Source of the DNA: a virus
Taxonomy: Duplodnaviria; Heunggongvirae; Uroviricota; Caudoviricetes
IMG/VR virus record: IMGVR_UViG_2565956712_000007
DNA length: 42,087 bases
Reading direction: 5' to 3' (one strand)
Shown here: in pieces, positions 6,470 to 37,063 of the stretch
How positions within the stretch are numbered: position 1 is the stretch's first letter
Layout: each line of letters begins with the position of its first letter
The notes under the pieces: generated by a model
Seen by the model: the letters and a program-made list of their open reading frames with translations, nothing else
What the model was told of the DNA's origin: nothing
The model's database searches: none
Position numbers and translations under genes: made by a program

Positions 6470-6572
6470 GTTAAATCTCCAGATAGTCGCAGCACCCGTT
6501 GCGCCGCATATCTGGTTATTCTATTACCTGAAAAACCACATATGGATAGAAAGGATGTGAATACGAACAGAT

Positions 6573-6929: not shown

Positions 6930-6945
6930 GGCCGCAAGAGCGGCC
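6930..6945. terminator. Hairpin terminator GGCCGC-AAGA-GCGGCC between convergent genes
   Basis: Perfect 6-bp GC stem, 4-nt loop, T-rich flanks. Confidence 0.6.
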
Positions 6946-7673
6946 TATCGTTTCGCTTTGTGCTCATCCCAGCACGTTTTGCACCATGCCATTAAGCCGT
7001 CCGCATTTTGATTATTAGGGTAAAAGCTGGTTCGTTTTCTGCGGACATTACAAATTGGGCACCACTTCATATGGCGTGTATTCTTTGGGCCATCGAGACA
7101 CCTTGCACACCATTTAGTCAATCCATCTGGATTTTTTGACGATTTCCTGAATTTTTCATATGGAAGGTTTATTCTGCATCGCAAGCACTGCTTGCTACCA
7201 CTTGAAACTCTGTTAGCTGATTCTTCTTTTGGCGGCGATACAGAAGGTATTCTTGCTGGCTCTGATATTGCCTGAGGTGCTTTTTTAGATGACTGAGACG
7301 ATATGTCATCACCAGGGAATCTTCCATGATATGCCGGACGCGTTGACACTCCAGGTGGAATCTCAGCTGTAAACGGCTTTGGCTGAATCAGTTGCCTCTC
7401 TTTTGCTAACTCCTGCTGTTTATAATATGTCTGGATTACCGCACTATCATAAGCAGGAGGTGCGGAAATATTAGGCGCATTACCTCCAGTTTTTTGAAAC
7501 TGAGTAGAGGTGTGTTCTATCACCTGTGTACGATTAATCGTTATCTCCCCATCTTCGGTCTTTATCGTTTTGTTATGATTAACGACCGTACGATCAGAGA
7601 TCTTAGTCTTGTTCTGGTTGATAACGTAAATAATCACCGCAACCACACCAACAACTATCCAGAAAACTTCCAT
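6945..7673 (-). CDS. Membrane-anchored protein with duplicated Cys-rich (zinc-finger-like) C-terminal repeats; moron
   Basis: N-terminal TM helix; two C-x2-C ... W-C-x2-C repeats; operator-like site in its upstream region. Confidence 0.55.
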   Translation of the reverse strand: MEVFWIVVGVVAVIIYVINQNKTKISDRTVVNHNKTIKTEDGEITINRTQVIEHTSTQFQKTGGNAPNISAPPAYDSAVIQTYYKQQELAKERQLIQPKPFTAEIPPGVSTRPAYHGRFPGDDISSQSSKKAPQAISEPARIPSVSPPKEESANRVSSGSKQCLRCRINLPYEKFRKSSKNPDGLTKWCARCLDGPKNTRHMKWCPICNVRRKRTSFYPNNQNADGLMAWCKTCWDEHKAKR

Positions 7674-7802: not shown

Positions 7803-7894
7803 TTTACATCGCACTCCTCTTGTGCCATAGTAATCGGGCACTGGCAAAATCCAGTGCCGGGATTGGCGTCCCGGATTACTACAGAGGCACATAT

Positions 7895-7915
7895 GCCGCA
7901 TAAGCGGTTTTTTTT
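7895..7915 (+). terminator. Intrinsic terminator in the ant leader
   Basis: Short GC stem GCCGC-ATAA-GCGG followed by T8. Confidence 0.5.
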
Positions 7916-8068
7916 ATGTGTAAAGCGCACCTATTCTATGGTGGGCTGTGTGGGGGCACCGAAAGGTGCGCCGGGTCCTTTGTAGCCGGTTACGCCAACC
8001 CTGCACAGTTCACCACCAACCGATTGGCGTCGGTAGTGGTGATTAACCTAACTACAAAGGTGATCACT

Positions 8069-8755
8069 ATGACTGCTAACGTAACCCCATCTGTTTTTCA
8101 TTTTGAATCAGAAGCAACCATTCGAGCCATTGTTATTGATGGAAATCCTTGGTTTGTTGCCAAAGACGTTATTAAAGCTCTTCAACTGACAAACCCCACT
8201 ATGTCAATAAAATCTCTTGATGATGATGAAAGGGCTAAATTTAACTTAGGCCGTCAAGGCGAAACCAATATTATCAACGAGTCAGGCCTCTACACACTGA
8301 TCCTCCGCTGCCGCGATGCGGTGACACCAGGCACTATCCCATACCGCTTTCGTAAATGGGTTACAGGTGAGGTTCTTCCTCAGATCCGCCGCACCGGAAG
8401 TTACATTAAAAACTCGCTCCCGCAAGAAGAACGCATAAAGATGGTTGCCGACCAGGTAGCCAACGCCACGGCGTCAGCAGTAATGCAGGCAATGAAGGTA
8501 GAGAACAAAACCTACAGCGCCCCACTGAAGCCCGGCTACCGCAGCCTGATTCATTCGCCGTCTGGTGTTCTCGGCCTGACAGAGAACTCACTGCTGATGA
8601 ATCTGCTGAACCAGTTACAGGACGACGGGCACGACGTATCGGGCGCGGCGGCGGAGCTGACCACCATGTTCTGCTACATCGTCGGTGTGAGCAAATGCCT
8701 GCGTGATATCCAGACCCACGCGGAGTACATCAACGACAAGGCAGGGTTCTTCTGA
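8069..8755 (+). CDS. Antirepressor, Bro-N-type N-terminal domain (Ant1)
   Basis: N-terminus FHFESEATIRAIVIDGNPWFVAKDV; RBS AAGGTGA; C-terminal 77 aa near-identical to Ant2. Track start 7916 is likely too far upstream. Confidence 0.8.
   Translation: MTANVTPSVFHFESEATIRAIVIDGNPWFVAKDVIKALQLTNPTMSIKSLDDDERAKFNLGRQGETNIINESGLYTLILRCRDAVTPGTIPYRFRKWVTGEVLPQIRRTGSYIKNSLPQEERIKMVADQVANATASAVMQAMKVENKTYSAPLKPGYRSLIHSPSGVLGLTENSLLMNLLNQLQDDGHDVSGAAAELTTMFCYIVGVSKCLRDIQTHAEYINDKAGFF
8522..8755 (+). repeat. Inverted repeat arm A (234 bp, about 96% identical to arm B)
   Basis: Encodes C-terminal 77 aa of Ant1; about 10 mismatches to the reverse complement of 9618..9851. Confidence 0.85.
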
Positions 8756-9567: not shown

Positions 9568-9579
9568 GTGACATGTCAC
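9568..9579. repeat. 12-bp perfect palindrome GTGACATGTCAC (copy 1)
   Basis: Exact 12-mer, adjacent to the terminator hairpin. Confidence 0.9.
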
Positions 9580-9617: not shown

Positions 9618-9851
9618 TCAGAAGAACCCTGCCTTGTCGTTGATGTACTCCGCGTGCGTCTGGATATCACGCAGGCATTTGCTCACACCAACGATGTAGC
9701 AGAACATGGTTGTCAGCTCCGCCGCCGCGCCCGATACATCATGCCCGTCTTCCTGTAACTGGTTCAGCAGATTCATCAGCAGTGAGTGCTCCGTCAGGCC
9801 GAGAACACCAGACGGAGAATGAATCAGGCTGCGGTAGCCGGGCTTCAGCGG
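9618..9851 (-). repeat. Inverted repeat arm B (234 bp)
   Basis: Encodes C-terminal 77 aa of Ant2; reverse complement matches 8522..8755. Confidence 0.85.
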
Positions 9852-10556
9852 ATAACCATAACATTTTGTCTGTGTTTTAATTGCCTCACGAAGCGCATCT
9901 AACATCTTGACTGCCACTTCATCATTCTCTGATGCAGATCCAGCAGGGAGATACTCCCCTTCAAGCGGAACCCGAGCAACAAGAGACAACGCTTCGGCGA
10001 ATTGATCTTCATCAATTTCTTTGTACGAACAGCCAAAATGAGATTTCAGTGACGACCACATGGTGATCATCGCCTTAGCCTGTTTTTCTTTTGGCAGAGA
10101 CTGACCGCGACTCATGACGAGTTGTTTAATGGCTTCCTGCTGTTCAGTGGTGATTTTACCCGGCAACGCCTTTTTAGCTTTGCGTGGGTTAACTACATGG
10201 CCTTTAGTCCAGTAATCGTAGAGCACATCGTCACACTCTTCCTGATACTGGATTACCTTGTCGCGGATTTCAGGGCGTACTTTGTTTGGACTGATGCTGT
10301 TCAACCAAGCTGCCAATTTTCGTAAAGCCATACAAATCATGGCTTGCACCCCACCGGCAGAAGGTATGGTGATTTCCACCATACCCTTCGAGAAGCGTTG
10401 AGAAATCTTCTTATGTTGAGATTTCCAGTCTAGCCCCATTCCCTCAACGATAGGTTTCATTGGGGTATACGGTTCACCGTTGTGATTGACAACATAAAGC
10501 TCTGCGCCGTGGAATGGCACGTTGATAGTAGATACCGCTGTTGCTATACTCGTCAT
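9618..10556 (-). CDS. Antirepressor, P22 Ant-type N-terminal domain (Ant2)
   Basis: N-terminus VPFHGAELYVVNHNGEPYTPMKPIVEGMGLDW; downstream of arc-like gene as in P22 immI. Confidence 0.8.
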   Translation of the reverse strand: MTSIATAVSTINVPFHGAELYVVNHNGEPYTPMKPIVEGMGLDWKSQHKKISQRFSKGMVEITIPSAGGVQAMICMALRKLAAWLNSISPNKVRPEIRDKVIQYQEECDDVLYDYWTKGHVVNPRKAKKALPGKITTEQQEAIKQLVMSRGQSLPKEKQAKAMITMWSSLKSHFGCSYKEIDEDQFAEALSLVARVPLEGEYLPAGSASENDEVAVKMLDALREAIKTQTKCYGYPLKPGYRSLIHSPSGVLGLTEHSLLMNLLNQLQEDGHDVSGAAAELTTMFCYIVGVSKCLRDIQTHAEYINDKAGFF

Positions 10557-10628
10557 GTCGTTAATTCCTATACGTAGTTTTACGATACTGAAGCCCTGAC
10601 GGTCTGGCCACCGTTGGGCTTCGCTGTT

Positions 10629-10796
10629 TTATGCCACGCTATTCTTCTCACCAGTGAGTCCATACACTTTCCTCAGCTGATAGATAATCTCTGTATTGAA
10701 CTTTCGGCATTCTTTTTCGCCATTTCTTTCAATAGCTAACTTCACATCGTCCGGAAAACGAACTCGTCGTTGACACATCTCTTTTGCTTTTTGCAT
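10629..10796 (-). CDS. Arc-like ribbon-helix-helix repressor (56 aa)
   Basis: RVRFPDDVKLAIERNGEK..FNTEIIYQL resembles P22 Arc; AAGGAG RBS 7 nt before the ATG at 10796. Confidence 0.7.
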   Translation of the reverse strand: MQKAKEMCQRRVRFPDDVKLAIERNGEKECRKFNTEIIYQLRKVYGLTGEKNSVA

Positions 10797-10810
10797 TTCA
10801 TATCTCCTTA

Positions 10811-10825
10811 GCCCCACGGTGGGGC
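10811..10825. promoter_or_regulatory. 15-bp palindrome GCCCCAC-G-GTGGGGC, candidate Arc/Mnt operator
   Basis: Perfect 7-bp arms; between divergent arc-like and mnt-like genes, beside a TTGACA hexamer on the minus strand. Confidence 0.5.
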
Positions 10826-10916
10826 AAAACAATTGTCACACCGTGCGTCATTGATGTCAAGCACACGGTGAGGCATACTTCAATCATTGCAAGTAACTCA
10901 ATATTTGGTGAAGAAC

Positions 10917-11348
10917 ATGAGCAGAGAAGATCCACAACTAAGGATCAGACTTCCCGTTGAAGTAAAAGAAAAAATAGAAATTTCTGCAAAAGCCAATAAG
11001 CGATCAATGAACGCTGAAATAGTACAACGTCTTGACACCAGCTTTCTGAAAGATATTCATGAAGATGACGTAATTTCTGCTTATGAAGCAAAAATTATTG
11101 CAAACAATGCACGGCATGAAATATCAAATATTATTTTCAAAAGAACCTTTAATGAAATTAATAAGAAAATAACACTTGGACATACAAGTTTTTATATAAA
11201 CCTTAATGACCTTGAACTGGAATCACTTGCAGATAATGATTACCAGATCATCTTTGAAAAAACATTTAATAAGCTCAATGAACTAGGTTACATCATCTGT
11301 GAAAACTCATGGGATGCAGATGGTTTTGGAATTGAAATACCTGAATAG
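10917..11348 (+). CDS. Mnt-like RHH repressor fused to an AT-rich C-terminal extension
   Basis: N-terminus DPQLRIRLPVEVKEKIEISAKANKRSMNAEIVQRL matches P22 Mnt; about 60 aa longer than Mnt. Confidence 0.65.
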   Translation: MSREDPQLRIRLPVEVKEKIEISAKANKRSMNAEIVQRLDTSFLKDIHEDDVISAYEAKIIANNARHEISNIIFKRTFNEINKKITLGHTSFYINLNDLELESLADNDYQIIFEKTFNKLNELGYIICENSWDADGFGIEIPE

Positions 11349-18787: not shown

Positions 18788-21252
18788 CAGAATCCCCCAA
18801 CAGTAAGACGAGGAATAACGGCAAGAACAGACAGCGGCAACGGGTCAAGCTGACGGATTCTTACACGTCCGTTTTTGCCCCAGTTACTGTCCAGTTTCAC
18901 TTCTACTTTTCCGGTAGCGTCATCAACAGGATCATCGTAGAACTCGAATTCACGCTGTGGATATTCGTACCATTTACCGCCGGGCGTAGTCGCCCAGATG
19001 CCACGACTGGCATTCACAACCAGAGTAACGGACGGGATCACCTGTTTTTTGTCCAGCAGCGTTTCCTGTCCGTTAATGTTGATATCCAGTGTTTCGAATT
19101 CAGCAGTTATTGGCAGGCCGATGTGCACTACAGCCCCAGGTGATTCCAGCGTGACGGCACCTCCGGAAACCACTTTCTGTGGTTCCACGTTCGCATCAGA
19201 GAGAATGTTTACGGTCTGGCCTTCAAGATGAGACAGGCCTCCAAATGTCCGGCGCGCCATCTGCCAGTTCGTGGTGGCCACATTCCTGAGGGATGGCGGG
19301 ACGTTCCTGTTAGCACGAACCACTACAGCGGTATTGCTGGTTACAGAAATAATGTCGCAACGTAATTCTTTTGACACTTCAGTATCAGGATCAGTTCCGG
19401 TATAAGGGAACTGTAGTTGCGCGCCGACATCACTACTGGTGAAGTACGCACCACCAGAAACACTGATTGTATATTCCGCACGGTAATCCCATTCACCAGA
19501 ACCACCAGTGATGGTCATCGTTCTGTCAGACGTATTTCTTCCATCATAGCTAAGGCCAGAATCAACAAAGAAAGCATCTTCATCGCTGGTAAATAAACGG
19601 CTGGACAGTCGCTCTATGTATCTCACTGTTTGCCCGTTAACGGTTCGGTTAACGACGAAATACACCGCATCTTCATTGCCTTCGCTGATACTGCATGTGC
19701 TTTCATATTTTCCGGTACTGGATTGTGGTGCCCATGCAAAAACCTGCTGATCACGCAAATAGGTCATCACCAGTAATTTACCGTCATCACGAATGCAGAA
19801 GGCGCTGGAGTAAGGGACAATCGAGAAGCACCAGTCAACAATGCTGTGCTTCTGAAAAAGATGATTGGCAAGGATGGTCAGGTCGTTCCCCTGATAGCCG
19901 TCAACATCGAATGAGTAGGCCAGATCACGGACAACACTGCCTTTCTCCTGGACGAACAGAGCAATATTCGCCACGGCAATTGGTGGGACATTGCTCGAGC
20001 CATTTGATCCCTGAGAGCTGAATGCAAATGATGATGGGGTAAGCACTTTGTTCTGGTCGCCAGTGATGACGTACTCACCTCCGGAAGTCAGCGCCACCAG
20101 CGAACCAACATCAATCAGGTGACGGATCTCATTAACCTGACGCCCGGCATAGGTGTAGATAATTCTGTCGTCATCCTGCGTAGGATTGCTTTTGCCAAAA
20201 TCCTTATAATCCCCGGTACGGCTGGCCCAGATAGTCTGAGGGAACGCAGTCGATGCGGCGAAGTAAAGGCGTTGTTGATAATAAACAACAGTGCCAGGAT
20301 AACCGTTAATACTGTTCCAGGCATATTTAGCCCATTTATAGCTGGCATTATCCTCGCCAACTACCTGCGAAGGGATATAGGAAATCACCTCGGCAGTTGC
20401 AGTAGTTCCATTTGCAGCAGAGATACGGGCAATGCCAAAACCACTGTGCAGATACTCCCACTCAATGCCGGTATCATCATCACCGGATCCGCCCCAGCCA
20501 TCCCATGATGTGCCTTCTGTATGCGAAGGGCGCAAAGTGCCTGTTTTGCCTGCTGTAACGGCGCGATAGTAGTTACTGTCTGCACGGCGAATATCGCCAA
20601 TCGACGTACTCTTACTGGTTTCCCATACCGGCACAGAATCCACTGCAGGCTGTTCCAGATAGAACAATTTGCCTACCTGCTCCGCGCCAAAAATTGAGGC
20701 GCTTGCCGTTAACGTAATTGTCCCGGTGCTGGCGCTGGCATAAACCGTCACTGACTCGTCAATATTGATATCTTCAAATGGCCCGTTCTTCGTTACCACA
20801 TCAACCAGTTGCCAGTTGTCATGCGCATAGCGGCGCAACTCTTTCGGCGGGTATGCCGGATGAACCAGCGTAAGCACGTCTGCGCTTTGCGTGAATTTAA
20901 TTCGGAACAGATCGGCTTCAGTATATGGCGTGGCAATTTCATAAATAACATTGCTGCTGTTCAGCACCAACGCACCATCTTTGATAACGCGCATGTACTG
21001 GTGTCCGAACTCCAGAGCATAAGTCTGAACCGTCGAGAACTGGAACGGGATCAGGCGGCATTTCCGATTTGGGTATTTGGCGGCACCGACAAAACGCGTA
21101 CCAGGTCGATTCTCAACGCCGCCATACTGCCGCACGATAAAGTTATCGCACTTGCGCAATGCCACCTGGTACTTCGCCATGTCGATACGACCGTACAACG
21201 ACGGTCCAATCTCACCACCGGCAAAGCTGGGCTGGATCCAACTGATAGCCAT
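18787..21252 (-). CDS. Tail tubular protein B-like / nozzle protein (821 aa)
   Basis: Size and position after a roughly 200-aa tube-A-like gene in a T7-like order. Confidence 0.65.
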   Translation of the reverse strand: MAISWIQPSFAGGEIGPSLYGRIDMAKYQVALRKCDNFIVRQYGGVENRPGTRFVGAAKYPNRKCRLIPFQFSTVQTYALEFGHQYMRVIKDGALVLNSSNVIYEIATPYTEADLFRIKFTQSADVLTLVHPAYPPKELRRYAHDNWQLVDVVTKNGPFEDINIDESVTVYASASTGTITLTASASIFGAEQVGKLFYLEQPAVDSVPVWETSKSTSIGDIRRADSNYYRAVTAGKTGTLRPSHTEGTSWDGWGGSGDDDTGIEWEYLHSGFGIARISAANGTTATAEVISYIPSQVVGEDNASYKWAKYAWNSINGYPGTVVYYQQRLYFAASTAFPQTIWASRTGDYKDFGKSNPTQDDDRIIYTYAGRQVNEIRHLIDVGSLVALTSGGEYVITGDQNKVLTPSSFAFSSQGSNGSSNVPPIAVANIALFVQEKGSVVRDLAYSFDVDGYQGNDLTILANHLFQKHSIVDWCFSIVPYSSAFCIRDDGKLLVMTYLRDQQVFAWAPQSSTGKYESTCSISEGNEDAVYFVVNRTVNGQTVRYIERLSSRLFTSDEDAFFVDSGLSYDGRNTSDRTMTITGGSGEWDYRAEYTISVSGGAYFTSSDVGAQLQFPYTGTDPDTEVSKELRCDIISVTSNTAVVVRANRNVPPSLRNVATTNWQMARRTFGGLSHLEGQTVNILSDANVEPQKVVSGGAVTLESPGAVVHIGLPITAEFETLDININGQETLLDKKQVIPSVTLVVNASRGIWATTPGGKWYEYPQREFEFYDDPVDDATGKVEVKLDSNWGKNGRVRIRQLDPLPLSVLAVIPRLTVGGF

Positions 21253-27047: not shown

Positions 27048-27064
27048 ATTACCTTTCAGGTAAC
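27048..27064. promoter_or_regulatory. Operator-like site ATTACC-TTTCA-GGTAAC
   Basis: Same half-sites and same spacer as the 6573 site. Confidence 0.55.
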
Positions 27065-27385: not shown

Positions 27386-27462
27386 GTGGCATTAGCTCAG
27401 TTGGACAGAGCAACCGCCTTCTAAGCGGTTGGTCGCAGGTTCGAATCCTGCATGCCACGCCA
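27386..27462 (+). tRNA. tRNA-Arg (anticodon UCU)
   Basis: Hand-folded cloverleaf: 7-bp acceptor GTGGCAT/ATGCCAC, D-stem GCTC/GAGC, anticodon stem ACCGC/GCGGT with loop CTTCTAA, T-arm GCAGG-TTCGAAT-CCTGC, discriminator G, encoded CCA. Confidence 0.85.
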
Positions 27463-27660: not shown

Positions 27661-28083
27661 ATGAAGACAATTGATATGTTGGCTAAGTATCTAAATGAAT
27701 GGCCATTAAAATATTCTCGTATCGTTCAGGCTGAAGACTGCGTTTTTTATGGCGTTTTTGCTGGTAATGAAATGCATTACGAAGTAATTCAGAGTGAGGG
27801 ACTGACCGGGTTAACTCTTAGCGAAGACCATGGTACTAGCGTTACGTTCCATGACTGGATAACAGCACAACGTTCTGAAATGGAAAAAGGCGATGTGTTT
27901 GATATTTCTCGCGCTGTATACGCCAAAGAAAAAAGTGATGATGATTACATGCGCGAAAACTTATACAACATGAAGTTACAATGCCTGGCTGAAGTGCTTA
28001 GTAAAAGATCTTTACTTGATGTGGTTGGTGCTGAGCAGGACGCCAAGGCAATCAACGCCGCATTCGATAAAATAACCTTCTAA
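27661..28083 (+). CDS. Moron protein (140 aa), function unknown
   Basis: RBS AAGGTGAG; antisense to late operon; own terminator. Confidence 0.6.
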   Translation: MKTIDMLAKYLNEWPLKYSRIVQAEDCVFYGVFAGNEMHYEVIQSEGLTGLTLSEDHGTSVTFHDWITAQRSEMEKGDVFDISRAVYAKEKSDDDYMRENLYNMKLQCLAEVLSKRSLLDVVGAEQDAKAINAAFDKITF

Positions 28084-28087
28084 CGCA

Positions 28088-28099
28088 GTGACATGTCAC
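28088..28099. repeat. 12-bp perfect palindrome GTGACATGTCAC (copy 2)
   Basis: Exact 12-mer, 4 nt after the moron stop, 4 nt before the terminator hairpin. Confidence 0.9.
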
Positions 28100-28103
28100 A
28101 AAC

Positions 28104-28130
28104 AGCCAGCCGATGAGCTGGCTTTGTTTT
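28104..28130 (+). terminator. Intrinsic terminator AGCCAGC-CGATGA-GCTGGCT + TTGTTTT
   Basis: 7-bp perfect stem and T-rich tail. Confidence 0.75.
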
Positions 28131-28173: not shown

Positions 28174-29649
28174 TTAAGCATAGGGATCGTAATCTGTGAT
28201 GGCCTTGCCTTGCTGGTTCTGCTGACCGGGAATTCGCAGACGCTTCGACACAGGGAACGCAAACGTCAGCAGTAGCGCATCGCCTTTACCAGGAGAACGC
28301 CCAAGCCGCTCCTTGATATCTTCCTTCTGTTCGATAATGATTTTACCGTCCACGCGAACTTTGTACTCTGCCGCCGACAGGTCGTCCGCTGTTTCCTGGT
28401 CATCCAGCATGCCGCCCAGCCTCAGCCATGTCTTGCATGAATTGAACATCTCCCCACGCTTGTTGAGCATCTGCGGGTCAGTAGACGCGCCACCGAACGG
28501 AACAAGTTGCCATGTACGACCCCATCCGTCACCGATTGACTTCAAACCGGTTCCGTAACCGAAGTCGATGAACACCGCGTCAGCCTGATACTGGTCTTCA
28601 AAGTCAGCGATACGCTTTGCCATAATCAGATCGTCAGTGGTCTTGTTGCCAGTCCACAGCACCTTACTGTGCAGCCCCTGCCGCAGGTATATCACAGCGT
28701 CATCAACGCCTGAGTATGCCGGGTCAACGCCGATTATCACCGGAGCATGTGCAACCTGCGCAGCGGTGACCACCCGTTTCATTGCCTCGTCAGTAAGTCC
28801 GGTAGGGATAAACTGCAATTCAGATGCATCCGGGAATATGCCGCGCACACGGATTTTAACGAAGTCGCTGTCTTCCCCGTAGTCATCAACCCATTTCTGC
28901 AACTGCTGTTTGTTGGTGCCTTCCACCGTCCGGCTGTCAATCTGCGCAGTTTTCCAGCGGTGTTTATATTTGCGGAAACATTCGCGGAAACGTCCGGTAT
29001 TACGCGTCGGGTTTCCGAACGCCACCCAGATAATCTCAGTGTCTTCGTCCGTTAGCGCACCCTCGGCAACTTCCCACACCAGATCCGCAATGTTCGACGC
29101 TTCATCGAATACCACGATGATGCGTTTGCGCTCGTTGTGTAGTCCGGCGAATGCCTCAGTGTTGTGCTCAGACCAGGGTATTGCGTCAGCTCGCCACCGC
29201 TTGTCGTGTCCAGGATCATTGCTGTACATCGCGGTAGCGGTACAGGTAAACCAGTCTTTCGTGATAGCAAGGTTCGACCACTTGATAATTTCCGGCCAGG
29301 TCTTCGTTCGTAGCTGGTTGTCGGTGTTGGCGGTCACCACAACCTTACAATCCTCGCAAGTGGACATGCCCCAGTTGATCAGCATTGAGATGAATGCGGA
29401 TTTACCAATACCGTGACCCGAAGCGCGTGCCAGCATAAGCGGCTGATAGCGCGTCTCTGGATTCTGCAGGTGATCACGTATCTCTCGGAACGCATCAGCC
29501 TGCCACTGACGTGGACCGGTGGCATGTGCCAGTTCAGTCCCATCTTCCCCCCACGGGAACGCATAGAGGGCATAGCCAAGCGGATCGTGAGTGAACCCTG
29601 CAATATCCTCGATTAACTGCTCTTCAGGAGATAACGCTGTATCTGTCAC
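28174..29649 (-). CDS. Terminase large subunit
   Basis: Walker A-like SGHGIGKS; 491 aa; overlaps small-subunit gene by 4 nt. Confidence 0.85.
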   Translation of the reverse strand: MTDTALSPEEQLIEDIAGFTHDPLGYALYAFPWGEDGTELAHATGPRQWQADAFREIRDHLQNPETRYQPLMLARASGHGIGKSAFISMLINWGMSTCEDCKVVVTANTDNQLRTKTWPEIIKWSNLAITKDWFTCTATAMYSNDPGHDKRWRADAIPWSEHNTEAFAGLHNERKRIIVVFDEASNIADLVWEVAEGALTDEDTEIIWVAFGNPTRNTGRFRECFRKYKHRWKTAQIDSRTVEGTNKQQLQKWVDDYGEDSDFVKIRVRGIFPDASELQFIPTGLTDEAMKRVVTAAQVAHAPVIIGVDPAYSGVDDAVIYLRQGLHSKVLWTGNKTTDDLIMAKRIADFEDQYQADAVFIDFGYGTGLKSIGDGWGRTWQLVPFGGASTDPQMLNKRGEMFNSCKTWLRLGGMLDDQETADDLSAAEYKVRVDGKIIIEQKEDIKERLGRSPGKGDALLLTFAFPVSKRLRIPGQQNQQGKAITDYDPYA

Positions 29650-30242
29650 TGATTACCATCCTGACGTTCTTTGAGTCGCTTCCTGGCTGCTGCTATGCGA
29701 TCAGCAATTGTCACATTCACATTAACATCCAGACGTTCTTTGAATGCGTTGACATCAACATGCTTACCAATCAGCTCAAGGTTCTTCACCTTGTCAGGCC
29801 ATTTAATTTTTTTGAGGATTGTCTCTATTGAATCCTCGTTCATGTTCATGATGGTCGATGACAGATCAAAGCCACTAAGCGTAGTGCGCCAGATTTTCGG
29901 CCACTCACGGATTGGTTTAAGGCTCCCATCGTCGTTGAGGATGTCGATCACGTCCATCTGGTCGATCTCCACCAGGCGCATGAGAACGTAATCAGCACTG
30001 ACACGCATTCGTTTGTTGCGCTCCTCCATCAACTCGGCAATCCGTTTCTGAATGCGTTCATCGCGCATCATGACACTGGCTTTAACTGCCGCTGTATTTG
30101 GGGAGAATCCTGCGTTAATCGCAGCCTGAGTCTGGTTTTCAGGCGTTTTGATGTATGACTGGCAATAAGCCTCCTGCATTGCTGTGAGCGGCTTAAATTG
30201 CGTTGATTTGCGTTTATAGGTTTTAGGTTCAGCAGGCATCAT
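29646..30242 (-). CDS. Terminase small subunit (start probably the ATG-ATG at 30242/30239, not the track TTG at 30320)
   Basis: Terminase_2-like region LTAMQEAYCQSYI...AAINAGFS; upstream 78 nt hold an operator-like site and a terminator hairpin. Confidence 0.7.
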   Translation of the reverse strand: MMPAEPKTYKRKSTQFKPLTAMQEAYCQSYIKTPENQTQAAINAGFSPNTAAVKASVMMRDERIQKRIAELMEERNKRMRVSADYVLMRLVEIDQMDVIDILNDDGSLKPIREWPKIWRTTLSGFDLSSTIMNMNEDSIETILKKIKWPDKVKNLELIGKHVDVNAFKERLDVNVNVTIADRIAAARKRLKERQDGNQ

Positions 30243-30258
30243 AACCACCGTGGTAATT

Positions 30259-30275
30259 GTTACCGTTGTGGTAAT
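30259..30275. promoter_or_regulatory. Operator-like site GTTACC-GTTGT-GGTAAT in the terminase leader
   Basis: Inverted half-sites, 5-bp spacer. Confidence 0.5.
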
Positions 30276-30280
30276 AGTAC

Positions 30281-30311
30281 CATGCAAAATAAAGCCGCCA
30301 TAGTTGGCGGC
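30281..30311 (-). terminator. Hairpin terminator upstream of the late operon (tR'-like)
   Basis: GCCGCC-N6-GGCGGC followed on the minus strand by UUUAUUUUG. Confidence 0.55.
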
Positions 30312-30352
30312 AGTATTCAAAATCCATCAAATTCATCATGCATAATCTACTC

Positions 30353-30364
30353 GTGACATGTCAC
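30353..30364. repeat. 12-bp perfect palindrome GTGACATGTCAC (copy 3)
   Basis: Exact 12-mer overlapping the stop of gene 30361..30702, about 40 nt before the hairpin. Confidence 0.9.
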
Positions 30365-30702
30365 ACTATTAATTTCGTTTCATGCCAGCCTTTAGTCACC
30401 CAGCATTGCGAGTCACCATTACACGGGCATGAATTAACTGGAACTCTCTCGCCGCACTTACCGCAACGTTTTCTGCTGATCGATTTTATACGCCCGCGCA
30501 CGCGTGCATCATCCTGGCGGATCAGTAACGCTATATACTCACCAAATTCGTAAGGCGCACGCCCGGGGCGACGCGTGGCACAGTTACGCTCCAGCATTTC
30601 AATTTCCTGAGCATCAAGCACAATCTCCAGCTTACGCACACCAGATGCAGCTTGTCTGGCTCTCTGAGCGGCTTTGCGCTCTGCTGCTGATTTAGCCATC
30701 AA
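30361..30702 (-). CDS. Small basic protein with C-terminal Cys cluster (zinc-ribbon-like); candidate late regulator
   Basis: CGKCGERVPVNSCPCNGDSQC; last gene before the late operon. Confidence 0.5.
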   Translation of the reverse strand: MMAKSAAERKAAQRARQAASGVRKLEIVLDAQEIEMLERNCATRRPGRAPYEFGEYIALLIRQDDARVRGRIKSISRKRCGKCGERVPVNSCPCNGDSQCWVTKGWHETKLIV

Positions 30703-35607: not shown

Positions 35608-35877
35608 TCAGCTTGAATGTTGTGGGGAGGAATTAATCATGATCTGCTTAATCTCAGCCCTGATGCGACGGTTTGATTCCATGGTGCACTCAACACAGTG
35701 TCCGTTGTAAACCCAGCGTTCACTGTCATGTCCGTGCTTACATGGTTTTCCGGTGTAGTAGCGTTTAAGTCCGCGCTTTGCGGCATCAATACGTGTAATG
35801 ATTTCCATGGTAAGCCCTGTTATTAGTATTGGGATTACGGTCATTTTGTGCTGACACAAAAAAAAGATCAACCACAT
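35608..35877 (-). CDS. Small Cys/His-containing protein at the cII-equivalent position (start uncertain)
   Basis: KPCKHGH...NGHCVEC; between tR1-like terminator and O-like gene. Confidence 0.45.
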   Translation of the reverse strand: MWLIFFLCQHKMTVIPILITGLTMEIITRIDAAKRGLKRYYTGKPCKHGHDSERWVYNGHCVECTMESNRRIRAEIKQIMINSSPQHSS

Positions 35878-35910: not shown

Positions 35911-35936
35911 TATTAAAAGACCGCCGGATGGCGGTC
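35911..35936 (-). terminator. tR1-like intrinsic terminator after the cro-like gene
   Basis: GACCGCC-GGAT-GGCGGTC hairpin followed on the minus strand by UUUUAAUA. Confidence 0.7.
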
Positions 35937-35958
35937 TACAGAGGGTTGTAGCTGGATA

Positions 35959-36224: not shown

Positions 36225-36289
36225 TTCACCCATAAGGTAACAAAAATCAAGGATAGTTACCCATGAGGTGCATTTACCTGTTGGGTAAT
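36225..36289. promoter_or_regulatory. OR-like operator cluster of three 17-bp sites (36225-36241, 36256-36272, 36273-36289)
   Basis: TTCACC-CATAA-GGTAAC, GTTACC-CATGA-GGTGCA, TTTACC-TGTTG-GGTAAT between divergent cro-like and cI-like genes. Confidence 0.7.
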
Positions 36290-36984: not shown

Positions 36985-37063
36985 ATTACCTAACGGGTAA
37001 TTTTTTTAACTCATATCTATTGACATCAAACCATATACGCATAATTATTACCTCAACGGTAAC
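36985..37063. promoter_or_regulatory. OL/pL-like region: two 17-bp operators (36985-37001, 37047-37063) flanking a TTGACA -35 hexamer (37020-37025)
   Basis: ATTACC-TAACG-GGTAAT and ATTACC-TCAAC-GGTAAC; promoter points into the early-left operon. Confidence 0.65.

Follow-up and report, generated by a model that had tools for sequence, protein, structure and literature searches.

Layout of the junction

The DNA analyzed here, referred to as the window, is the 42,087-nucleotide (nt) virus record IMGVR_UViG_2565956712_000007, and the region of interest is the junction between its last early-right gene, which encodes a basic protein of 112 amino acids (aa), and terS, the gene for the small terminase subunit. 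The window is a phiV10/epsilon15-like (Uetakevirus) Escherichia coli prophage. The region is matched by phiV10, HEMP4, PAS61, TL-2011b, and the O157 typing phages at 92 to 98% identity, and the gene order is that of Uetakeviruses: integrase, early-left genes, repressor, early-right genes, terS, terL, the portal gene through to the tailspike gene, and lysis genes. The minus strand carries the early-right and late genes and all of the junction features. A first-pass annotation of the same DNA had described a gene, a palindrome, a hairpin, and an operator-like site at this junction, and all four are present where it put them; its view of the 112-aa gene as the last of the early-right operon is likewise borne out, and the epsilon15 and phiV10 homologs occupy the same place, as the last gene before terS. 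In the order in which they are transcribed, the features are as follows.

30361..30699, minus strand: gene for the 112-aa basic protein (phrog_536; the same as phiV10p55, epsilon15 gp49, and N15 gp46), with its ATG at 30699 and its stop codon TGA at 30363-30361
30353..30364, unstranded: palindrome GTGACATGTCAC, copy a, which overlaps and contains the stop codon of the 112-aa gene; proposed binding site of the 112-aa protein
30312..30352, minus strand: spacer of 41 nt between copy a and the terminator, the remnant 3' end of a 70-aa open reading frame (ORF) that related prophages keep (comparison with L017)
30285..30311, minus strand: intrinsic terminator with a 7-bp G+C stem, a 4-nt loop, and a U-run, ending the early-right operon (fold and conservation)
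30274..30282, minus strand: extended -10-like TGgTACTAT, read from the sequence as a candidate terS promoter; TGtTACTAT in the Salmonella phages epsilon15 and PAT1
30259..30275, unstranded: CI-type repressor operator 1 (ATTACCACAACGGTAAC), one mismatch from consensus; the homologous epsilon15 site, 12-27, is annotated as "repressor" binding
30241..30257, unstranded: CI-type repressor operator 2 (ATTACCACGGTGGTTAT), one mismatch from consensus, covering the terS Shine-Dalgarno sequence and first ATG
29646..30242, minus strand: terS (small terminase subunit, Terminase_2; Pfam E = 1e-29; phrog_51)

The comparisons established the anatomy of this junction, a regulon of repressor operators, and a link between gene and motif that holds across unrelated phages. 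Most likely, the junction stacks three independent controls: a gene-plus-site cassette, a terminator of the ordinary kind, and a terS start under CI control. An Rfam scan of the junction found no known RNA family.

The palindrome and its link to the 112-aa gene

The palindrome that had been noticed behind the 112-aa gene is real. GTGACATGTCAC (GTGAC-AT-GTCAC) has three exact copies in the window against 0.01 expected from shuffles, and each of the three comes after a gene's stop codon and, on that gene's strand, before an intrinsic terminator, at a distance of 41 nt for copy a, 4 nt for copy b, and 0 nt for copy c.

28088..28099, unstranded: palindrome copy b, flanked by terL and a plus-strand accessory gene convergent with it, ahead of the plus-strand terminator 28104-28123
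9568..9579, unstranded: palindrome copy c, after ant (9618-10556, minus strand), abutting the minus-strand terminator 9567-9549

All three copies are found at the same relative places in epsilon15 and PAS61. The counterpart of copy b is at 2142 in epsilon15 and at the same position in PAS61, and the counterpart of copy c is at 19517 in epsilon15, just before the terminator 19531-19556.

The first-pass annotation placed the palindrome in a stack ahead of terminase, where it expected a late switch and its target; across phages the palindrome tracks the 112-aa gene and not the terminase. GTGAC-N2-GTCAC occurs three times each in epsilon15, PAS61, N15, ZF40, and the Vibrio phage K303, where 0.03 to 0.05 copies per genome are expected, and a P2-like phage of Yersinia has one exact copy and a one-mismatch copy 33 bp away. 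Epsilon15, N15, ZF40, and the Vibrio phage, with about three motifs each, all encode a phrog_536 homolog, and mostly one of the copies abuts the stop codon of that gene. Across seven genomes, the spacings N1 and N4 gave no copies and the spacing N3 gave a single one, in Vibrio K303, with none in the window, epsilon15, N15, or ZF40. The controls, lambda and P2, have no GTGAC-N2-GTCAC; two GTGAC-N1-GTCAC copies in lambda were dismissed as coding coincidences (Val-Thr-Val-Thr).

Among close IMG/VR relatives, the palindrome stands at the 3' end of the gene in 77 of 80. What comes next downstream is of three kinds: as here, the terminator followed by terS; a ribosome site belonging to the inserted 70-aa ORF; or, in a lambdoid PL operon and ahead of xis and int, that of an unrelated gene. 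In N15, whose protein is only 35% identical, the stop codon TGA falls at motif positions 2 to 4, exactly as in the window, and in ZF40 the motif is likewise at the 3' end of the phrog_536 gene. The 12 bp stay fixed while the last codon of the gene varies (GTG, ATG, or CTG) and the flanks diverge; the arms are invariant, without compensatory changes, and the center varies among phages. The reverse test used 80 short IMG/VR stretches chosen only by the 14-mer TGTGACATGTCACA, which biases the sample towards T...A flanks. Between 21 and 29 of them encode a family member, 14 of these with the motif 0 to 8 nt from the end of the ORF, and many of the remainder are ZF40-like motif pairs that flank an immunity region, the gene lying outside the stretch. 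Of 119 distinct motif contexts, 16 have the motif directly against the 5' foot of a terminator, and at least four unrelated hairpin sequences are involved. Because gene and motif co-occur across phages, the palindrome is most likely the cognate site of the 112-aa protein. No published description of a link between phrog_536 and the palindrome, or of the motif strings, was found in the literature searched.

Some placements in other phages deserve separate mention. In ZF40 (5125 and 7622) and in four further stretches (L141, L143, L162, and L165), two motif copies 2.1 to 2.5 kb apart flank the cI/cro immunity region; the ZF40-like pair sits inside early-left and early-right genes, a placement that recalls lambda nutL/nutR. 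In the Klebsiella phage ST11-OXA245phi3.2 (L093, 3290-3360), behind the end-of-gene palindrome come a canonical LexA box (TACTGT-N8-ACAGTA) and, as an insertion before terS, a umuD-like gene; a second palindrome after terL, with a GT center, abuts a terminator. The phiV10 record ends at the center of the palindrome, which was considered as a physical genome end (cos/pac) and rejected: it is the annotator's choice, the record being closed at the stop codon of the last gene. In the window, the accessory gene that ends at copy b (27661-28083, plus strand) belongs to phrog_4846, and a tRNA-Arg gene (anticodon TCT; 27386-27462, plus strand) lies between it and a CI operator at 27048.

The 112-aa protein and its family

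The 112-aa gene begins with an ATG that overlaps the stop codon of the ASCH gene before it (ATGGCTAA). The protein had been described as a basic one of 113 aa with a C-terminal Cys4 cluster. It is indeed basic, with an isoelectric point of 9.8, and 112 aa long, the figure of 113 counting a TTG one codon upstream; the Cys4 description is approximate. Cysteines stand at positions 40, 79, 82, 91, 93, and 99, of which the family keeps C79, C82, and C99, with C40 nearly invariant. The residues invariant across the family are R8, R13, L28, L36, R43, Y50, E54, L59, C79, C82, and T102, and C99 is, like C40, nearly so.

Against the PHROG profiles, the protein matches phrog_536 over its full length (E = 8.3e-55; residues 2-112 on profile positions 2-114/115). 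PHROG labels this family "transcriptional regulator," and NCBI and PGAP annotate its members as hypothetical protein. Identity is 77 to 99% to the Uetakevirus copies and 35% to N15 gp46. The family comprises 154 clusters at 50% identity, with members in N15 (gene 46), ZF40 (gp22), P2-like Yersinia phages, N15-like Klebsiella phages, many Vibrio phages, and some Aeromonas phages; besides E. coli, the hosts of phages with the gene are Salmonella, Klebsiella, Yersinia, Pectobacterium, Vibrio, and Aeromonas. Prophages in 1,229 of 5,426 complete E. coli genomes, about a quarter, encode the 112-aa protein. A "gp46" of a telomere phage detected in lysogens was ruled out as a homolog, being the cB repressor. 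The ZX5 paper studied the repressor, antirepressor, and integrase, not the 112-aa protein.

Sequence searches of the protein against PDB, Pfam, and NCBIfam gave nothing significant, nor did Foldseek against PDB. The protein looks like a predicted ribbon-helix-helix-like N-terminal half joined to a zinc-finger C-terminal half. Ribbon-helix-helix proteins would be expected to have a symmetric or repeated operator, and a perfect 12-bp palindrome is found together with the gene. The C-terminal half aligns with TraR with an hhalign probability of 76% and a PDB profile E value of 0.2, which is a lead only; none of 36 phrog_536 members matches the DksA/TraR Pfam model, hhalign of the family against P2 Orf82 gives a probability of 2%, and the second C-x2-C of the DksA/TraR C4 zinc finger is absent from the family. 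Homology to DksA/TraR is tentative. A regulator with its target had been expected at this place, and the 112-aa protein is a plausible DNA-binding regulator encoded beside its own candidate site.

The terminator

The hairpin GCCGCCAACTATGGCGGC at 30311-30294, with its U-run reaching 30285, folds with -13.8 kcal/mol (z = -3.9). Both epsilon15 and PAT1 conserve it, and the epsilon15 record marks it as a terminator. It is a real intrinsic terminator, as had been proposed; the "tR'-like" setting given to it did not survive. No promoter above chance precedes the hairpin (the consensus scan gave 7 matches against 9.3 expected in shuffles, and the best promoter-like match, GTGACA-18-CATGAT, reached only 9 of 12), and the spacer between palindrome and hairpin is not conserved, being the ORF remnant listed above. 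A long-range RNA pairing predicted around the terminator was rejected, as it is not conserved in epsilon15. Elsewhere in the window, a gene for a 66-aa zinc-finger protein (C-x-H-G-H ... C-x2-C; phrog_1081; 35608-35808, minus strand) is the first past a tR1-like terminator (35918-35937, minus strand) behind the cro-like gene; a terminator so early implies some means of read-through.

Repressor operators and the start of terS

The operator-like site that had been seen in the terminase leader is a real operator, in fact two sites; as the target of a late switch it was misread, since the sites belong to a CI-type repressor regulon and lie downstream of the terminator. A scan of the whole window with the consensus ATTACC-N5-GGTAAT, allowing up to two mismatches, gave 14 sites against 1.1 expected. 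Besides the two at terS, they are the following consensus matches.

36273..36289 (unstranded) and 35888: CI-type operators, OR region
36985 and 37047: CI-type operators, OL
33880 and 33942: CI-type operators within the early-right operon
27048: CI-type operator before the portal module
6573: CI-type operator before the tailspike gene
7693, 7786, and 8826: CI-type operators, ant region
2728: weak operator match, 2 mismatches

The epsilon15 GenBank record has "repressor" sites of the same form in the terS leader (12-27), at OL, close to early genes, and ahead of both the portal module and the tailspike gene. Operator 1 overlaps TGgTACTAT, and the same overlap of -10 and operator is found in the OL-side promoter TTGACA-17-ATAATT (37020-37063). 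Because CI operators downstream of the terminator cover both the candidate -10 and the ribosome site, terS most likely has a repressor-controlled promoter of its own, as far as can be read from the sequence, and terminase may be transcribed from it and not by Q-type read-through. The start of terS is the ATG at 30242 or 30239, not the TTG at 30320 used in some records.

Several database records give terS as 224 aa (29646-30320, minus strand) from that TTG, a frame that would cross the terminator and both operators; the 198-aa product from either ATG is the better fit to epsilon15 and to the Pfam match. The direct repeat ATTACCAC, considered as a terminase or pac element, is better explained as the left halves of two CI operators. 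A second short box, AAACCACAT(A/T)(A/T)G, occurs at 6533, 26996, 33900, and 35869 (5 matches against 1.4 expected), 8 to 35 nt from CI operators; a related GTGGTTA lies inside operator 2 in the terS leader, and the epsilon15 record annotates IHF sites at two places corresponding to these boxes.

The phage carries two antirepressor systems of different types. In one, Rfam finds isrK (7838-7914, plus strand) and a C4 antisense RNA (7934-8020, plus strand) directly ahead of a Bro/Ant-type antirepressor gene (7916-8755, plus strand), an RNA-controlled antirepressor module in the style of P1 and N15; since the C4 RNA overlaps the ORF start listed at 7916, the true start is probably further downstream. 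The other is a P22-like immI module (9618-11348) with mnt-like (10887-11348, plus strand), arc-like (10629-10793, minus strand), and ant (9618-10556, minus strand) genes and a sar antisense RNA match (10558-10625, plus strand). Between the tailspike gene and the antirepressor region, a gene at 6945-7673 (minus strand) encodes a protein of 242 aa that has a membrane segment at its N terminus and a repeated C-x2-C zinc finger (endonuclease VII/Lar-like matches).

What the 112-aa protein may do

The reading that we favor, at a probability of about 50%, is that the junction combines a cassette of DNA-binding protein and own site, a terminator, and a repressor-controlled terS, and that the protein acts on RNA polymerase crossing the palindrome. 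The last early gene would make a dimer-type DNA-binding protein whose own site overlaps its stop codon, and each of the two operon boundaries that come next would have a further site, immediately 5' of its intrinsic terminator. Bound to the palindrome, the protein would act on the crossing polymerase and so set the transcription that passes each operon boundary. The intrinsic terminator ends the early operon, and the two prophage-repressor operators over the probable terS promoter and ribosome site would shut terminase off directly in the lysogen. As every one of the copies stands ahead of a terminator, the probable function of the protein is to modulate read-through there, and control of read-through, whether negative or positive, is the most economical reading for this phage. 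Either direction is possible; a negative role, as a roadblock, boundary, or occluding element, is favored, since most ribbon-helix-helix proteins are repressors and since the site in other phages lies between a stop codon and the ribosome site of the next gene.

Several points weigh against this reading. Copy a is 41 nt away from its terminator and does not abut it, and a roadblock just 5' of a terminator is without obvious benefit. About half of the N15 and ZF40 sites are inside genes. The pairing of protein and palindrome rests on co-occurrence, and the predicted strand residues differ between clades while the half-sites stay constant. At terS, the consensus promoter scan found none, and the promoter proposed there rests on the extended -10.

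A Q-type antiterminator or late activator had been expected at the junction, with the remark that the protein is not a recognizable lambda Q. The remark was correct: the protein has no Q match in Pfam, NCBIfam, or PHROG, only phrog_536. For the family as a whole, the evidence speaks against the expectation. N15 (Q-like gp40) and ZF40 (Q-like gp25) carry a phrog_536 gene as well, with the Q-like gene located elsewhere; in a P2-like phage, the phrog_536 gene follows the replication gene gpA; and in a lambdoid prophage, it stands in the PL operon next to xis and int. That homologs coexist with Q-like genes and sit in a lambdoid PL-type operon argues against a family-wide late activator, and the 112-aa protein is probably not a lambda-Q-type late switch.

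What survives of the expectation is a version confined to Uetakeviruses, which we consider unlikely. It holds that a Q-like logic operates without Q homology and that the 112-aa protein is the missing early-to-late switch, loading onto RNA polymerase from the end-of-gene site and giving read-through ahead of terS and the tailspike and lysis genes. The 112-aa gene is the last early gene and lies beside terS, no recognizable Q or N gene was found in Uetakeviruses, copies a and c come before terminators when read in the direction of the late genes, and the tailspike gene can be reached by the late operon only across the ant region. The alignment with TraR, a binder of the RNA polymerase secondary channel, also speaks for such a switch, but this link finds no support from P2 Orf82 or Pfam. 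Furthermore, the homologs are found far from late genes in phages that have Q-like genes, and in a P2-like early operon and a lambdoid PL operon; copy b precedes a terminator of the opposite strand, where read-through would go antisense into terL; and the presence of CI operators past the terminator implies that late promoters are separate. A bolder and rather improbable variant makes the 112-aa protein a new kind of termination controller, bound to its site 5' of terminators, with the TraR-like zinc finger engaging RNA polymerase and deciding whether it stops.

We also find it rather improbable that the protein is a MatP-like architectural one that binds, bridges, or marks matS-like sites in the phage, for looping, for shielding from the host MukBEF, or for positioning phage or plasmid-prophage DNA, with effects on transcription being secondary. 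The half-sites are identical to those of matS, hhalign pairs the ribbon-helix-helix regions of MatP and the family, though without significance, each genome has a few sites, some of them inside genes, and the family is present in phages of enterobacteria, Vibrio, and Aeromonas. The site is 12 bp and not 13, however, with no 13-bp site in the window, and there is no sequence homology (hhalign probability 0.1%). In place of a four-helix bundle or long C-terminal coiled coil there is a zinc finger, and the repeated abutment to terminators would be left unexplained.

It is very unlikely that a host factor or another phage protein is what recognizes the palindrome, with only physical hitch-hiking linking it to the 112-aa gene; the identity of its half-sites with those of the host matS and the reliance of the pairing on co-occurrence would allow this, but five unrelated phage types that have only this gene in common each carry extra unlinked copies, and lambda and P2 are without copies. 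That the palindrome works as RNA, a small hairpin near terminators or ribosome sites that affects mRNA stability or translation with or without the protein, is highly improbable, for although the site lies 9 to 19 nt before start codons in several phages and the intergenic RNA is more structured than shuffled sequences (z = -3.3), the palindrome makes a weak hairpin (-2.9 kcal/mol, z = -0.4), the invariant arms and varying center fit protein-DNA recognition, and some sites are inside genes in either orientation.

The cassette of 112-aa protein and 12-bp palindrome is previously undescribed. Together they make a testable protein-DNA pair that flags three defined positions per genome, and a widespread E. 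coli prophage protein annotated only as hypothetical gains a candidate target site. Should the protein control read-through at operon ends, this would explain the timing of late genes in epsilon15-like phages without Q or N. Were it the termination controller described above, it would be the early-to-late switch of these Q/N-less Uetakeviruses, and matS-type half-sites would have been borrowed from, or be convergent with, a host chromosome-organizing system. An architectural role would make it the phage equivalent of MatP-matS, which would stand out given the reported avoidance of true matS sites by prophages (PMC3603311).

Comparison with known systems

The arrangement resembles lambda Q with PR'-qut-tR' in that a regulator gene ends an early operon, with a DNA site just downstream and then a terminator before the late genes. 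It differs in that there is no homology, the phage site is outside any detectable promoter, there are three sites and not one, homologs of the 112-aa protein coexist with Q-like genes, and the downstream operator belongs to a CI-type repressor. RinA, LtrC, and ArpU, the late activators of Gram-positive phages, are small regulators encoded immediately upstream of terS that activate a promoter upstream of terS; they share their gene place with the 112-aa protein, and no sequence relationship to it was found.

With TraR, lambda Orf73, and P2 Orf82 (DksA/TraR), the protein shares a long helix that leads into a C-x2-C-G-x2-(I/L/V)-P zinc finger and its place as an early accessory gene, whereas the 112-aa family has an invariant Thr for the second C-x2-C and a DNA-binding module that replaces the acidic N-terminal tip. 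Repressors of the Arc, Mnt, and CopG type are, similarly, small basic proteins with a strand-helix-helix core, predicted in the case of the 112-aa protein, and a palindromic operator. Here, in contrast, the site is at the 3' end of the gene and not at its promoter, a zinc finger is added, and several sites are dispersed, some of them abutting terminators.

The closest likeness of the site itself is to matS of E. coli, GTGACRNYGTCAC (GTGAC[AG]N[TC]GTCAC), of 13 bp (PMC3603311). Both systems pair a dimeric ribbon-helix-helix protein, predicted as such in the phage, with an inverted repeat of the half-sites GTGAC and GTCAC. The phage motif has 12 bp (N2) against the 13 bp (N3) of matS, bringing the half-sites one base closer, and MatP has a four-helix bundle and coiled coil where the phage-encoded protein has a zinc finger, without significant sequence similarity between the two. 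The resemblance to matS could be convergence, distant ancestry, or coincidence.

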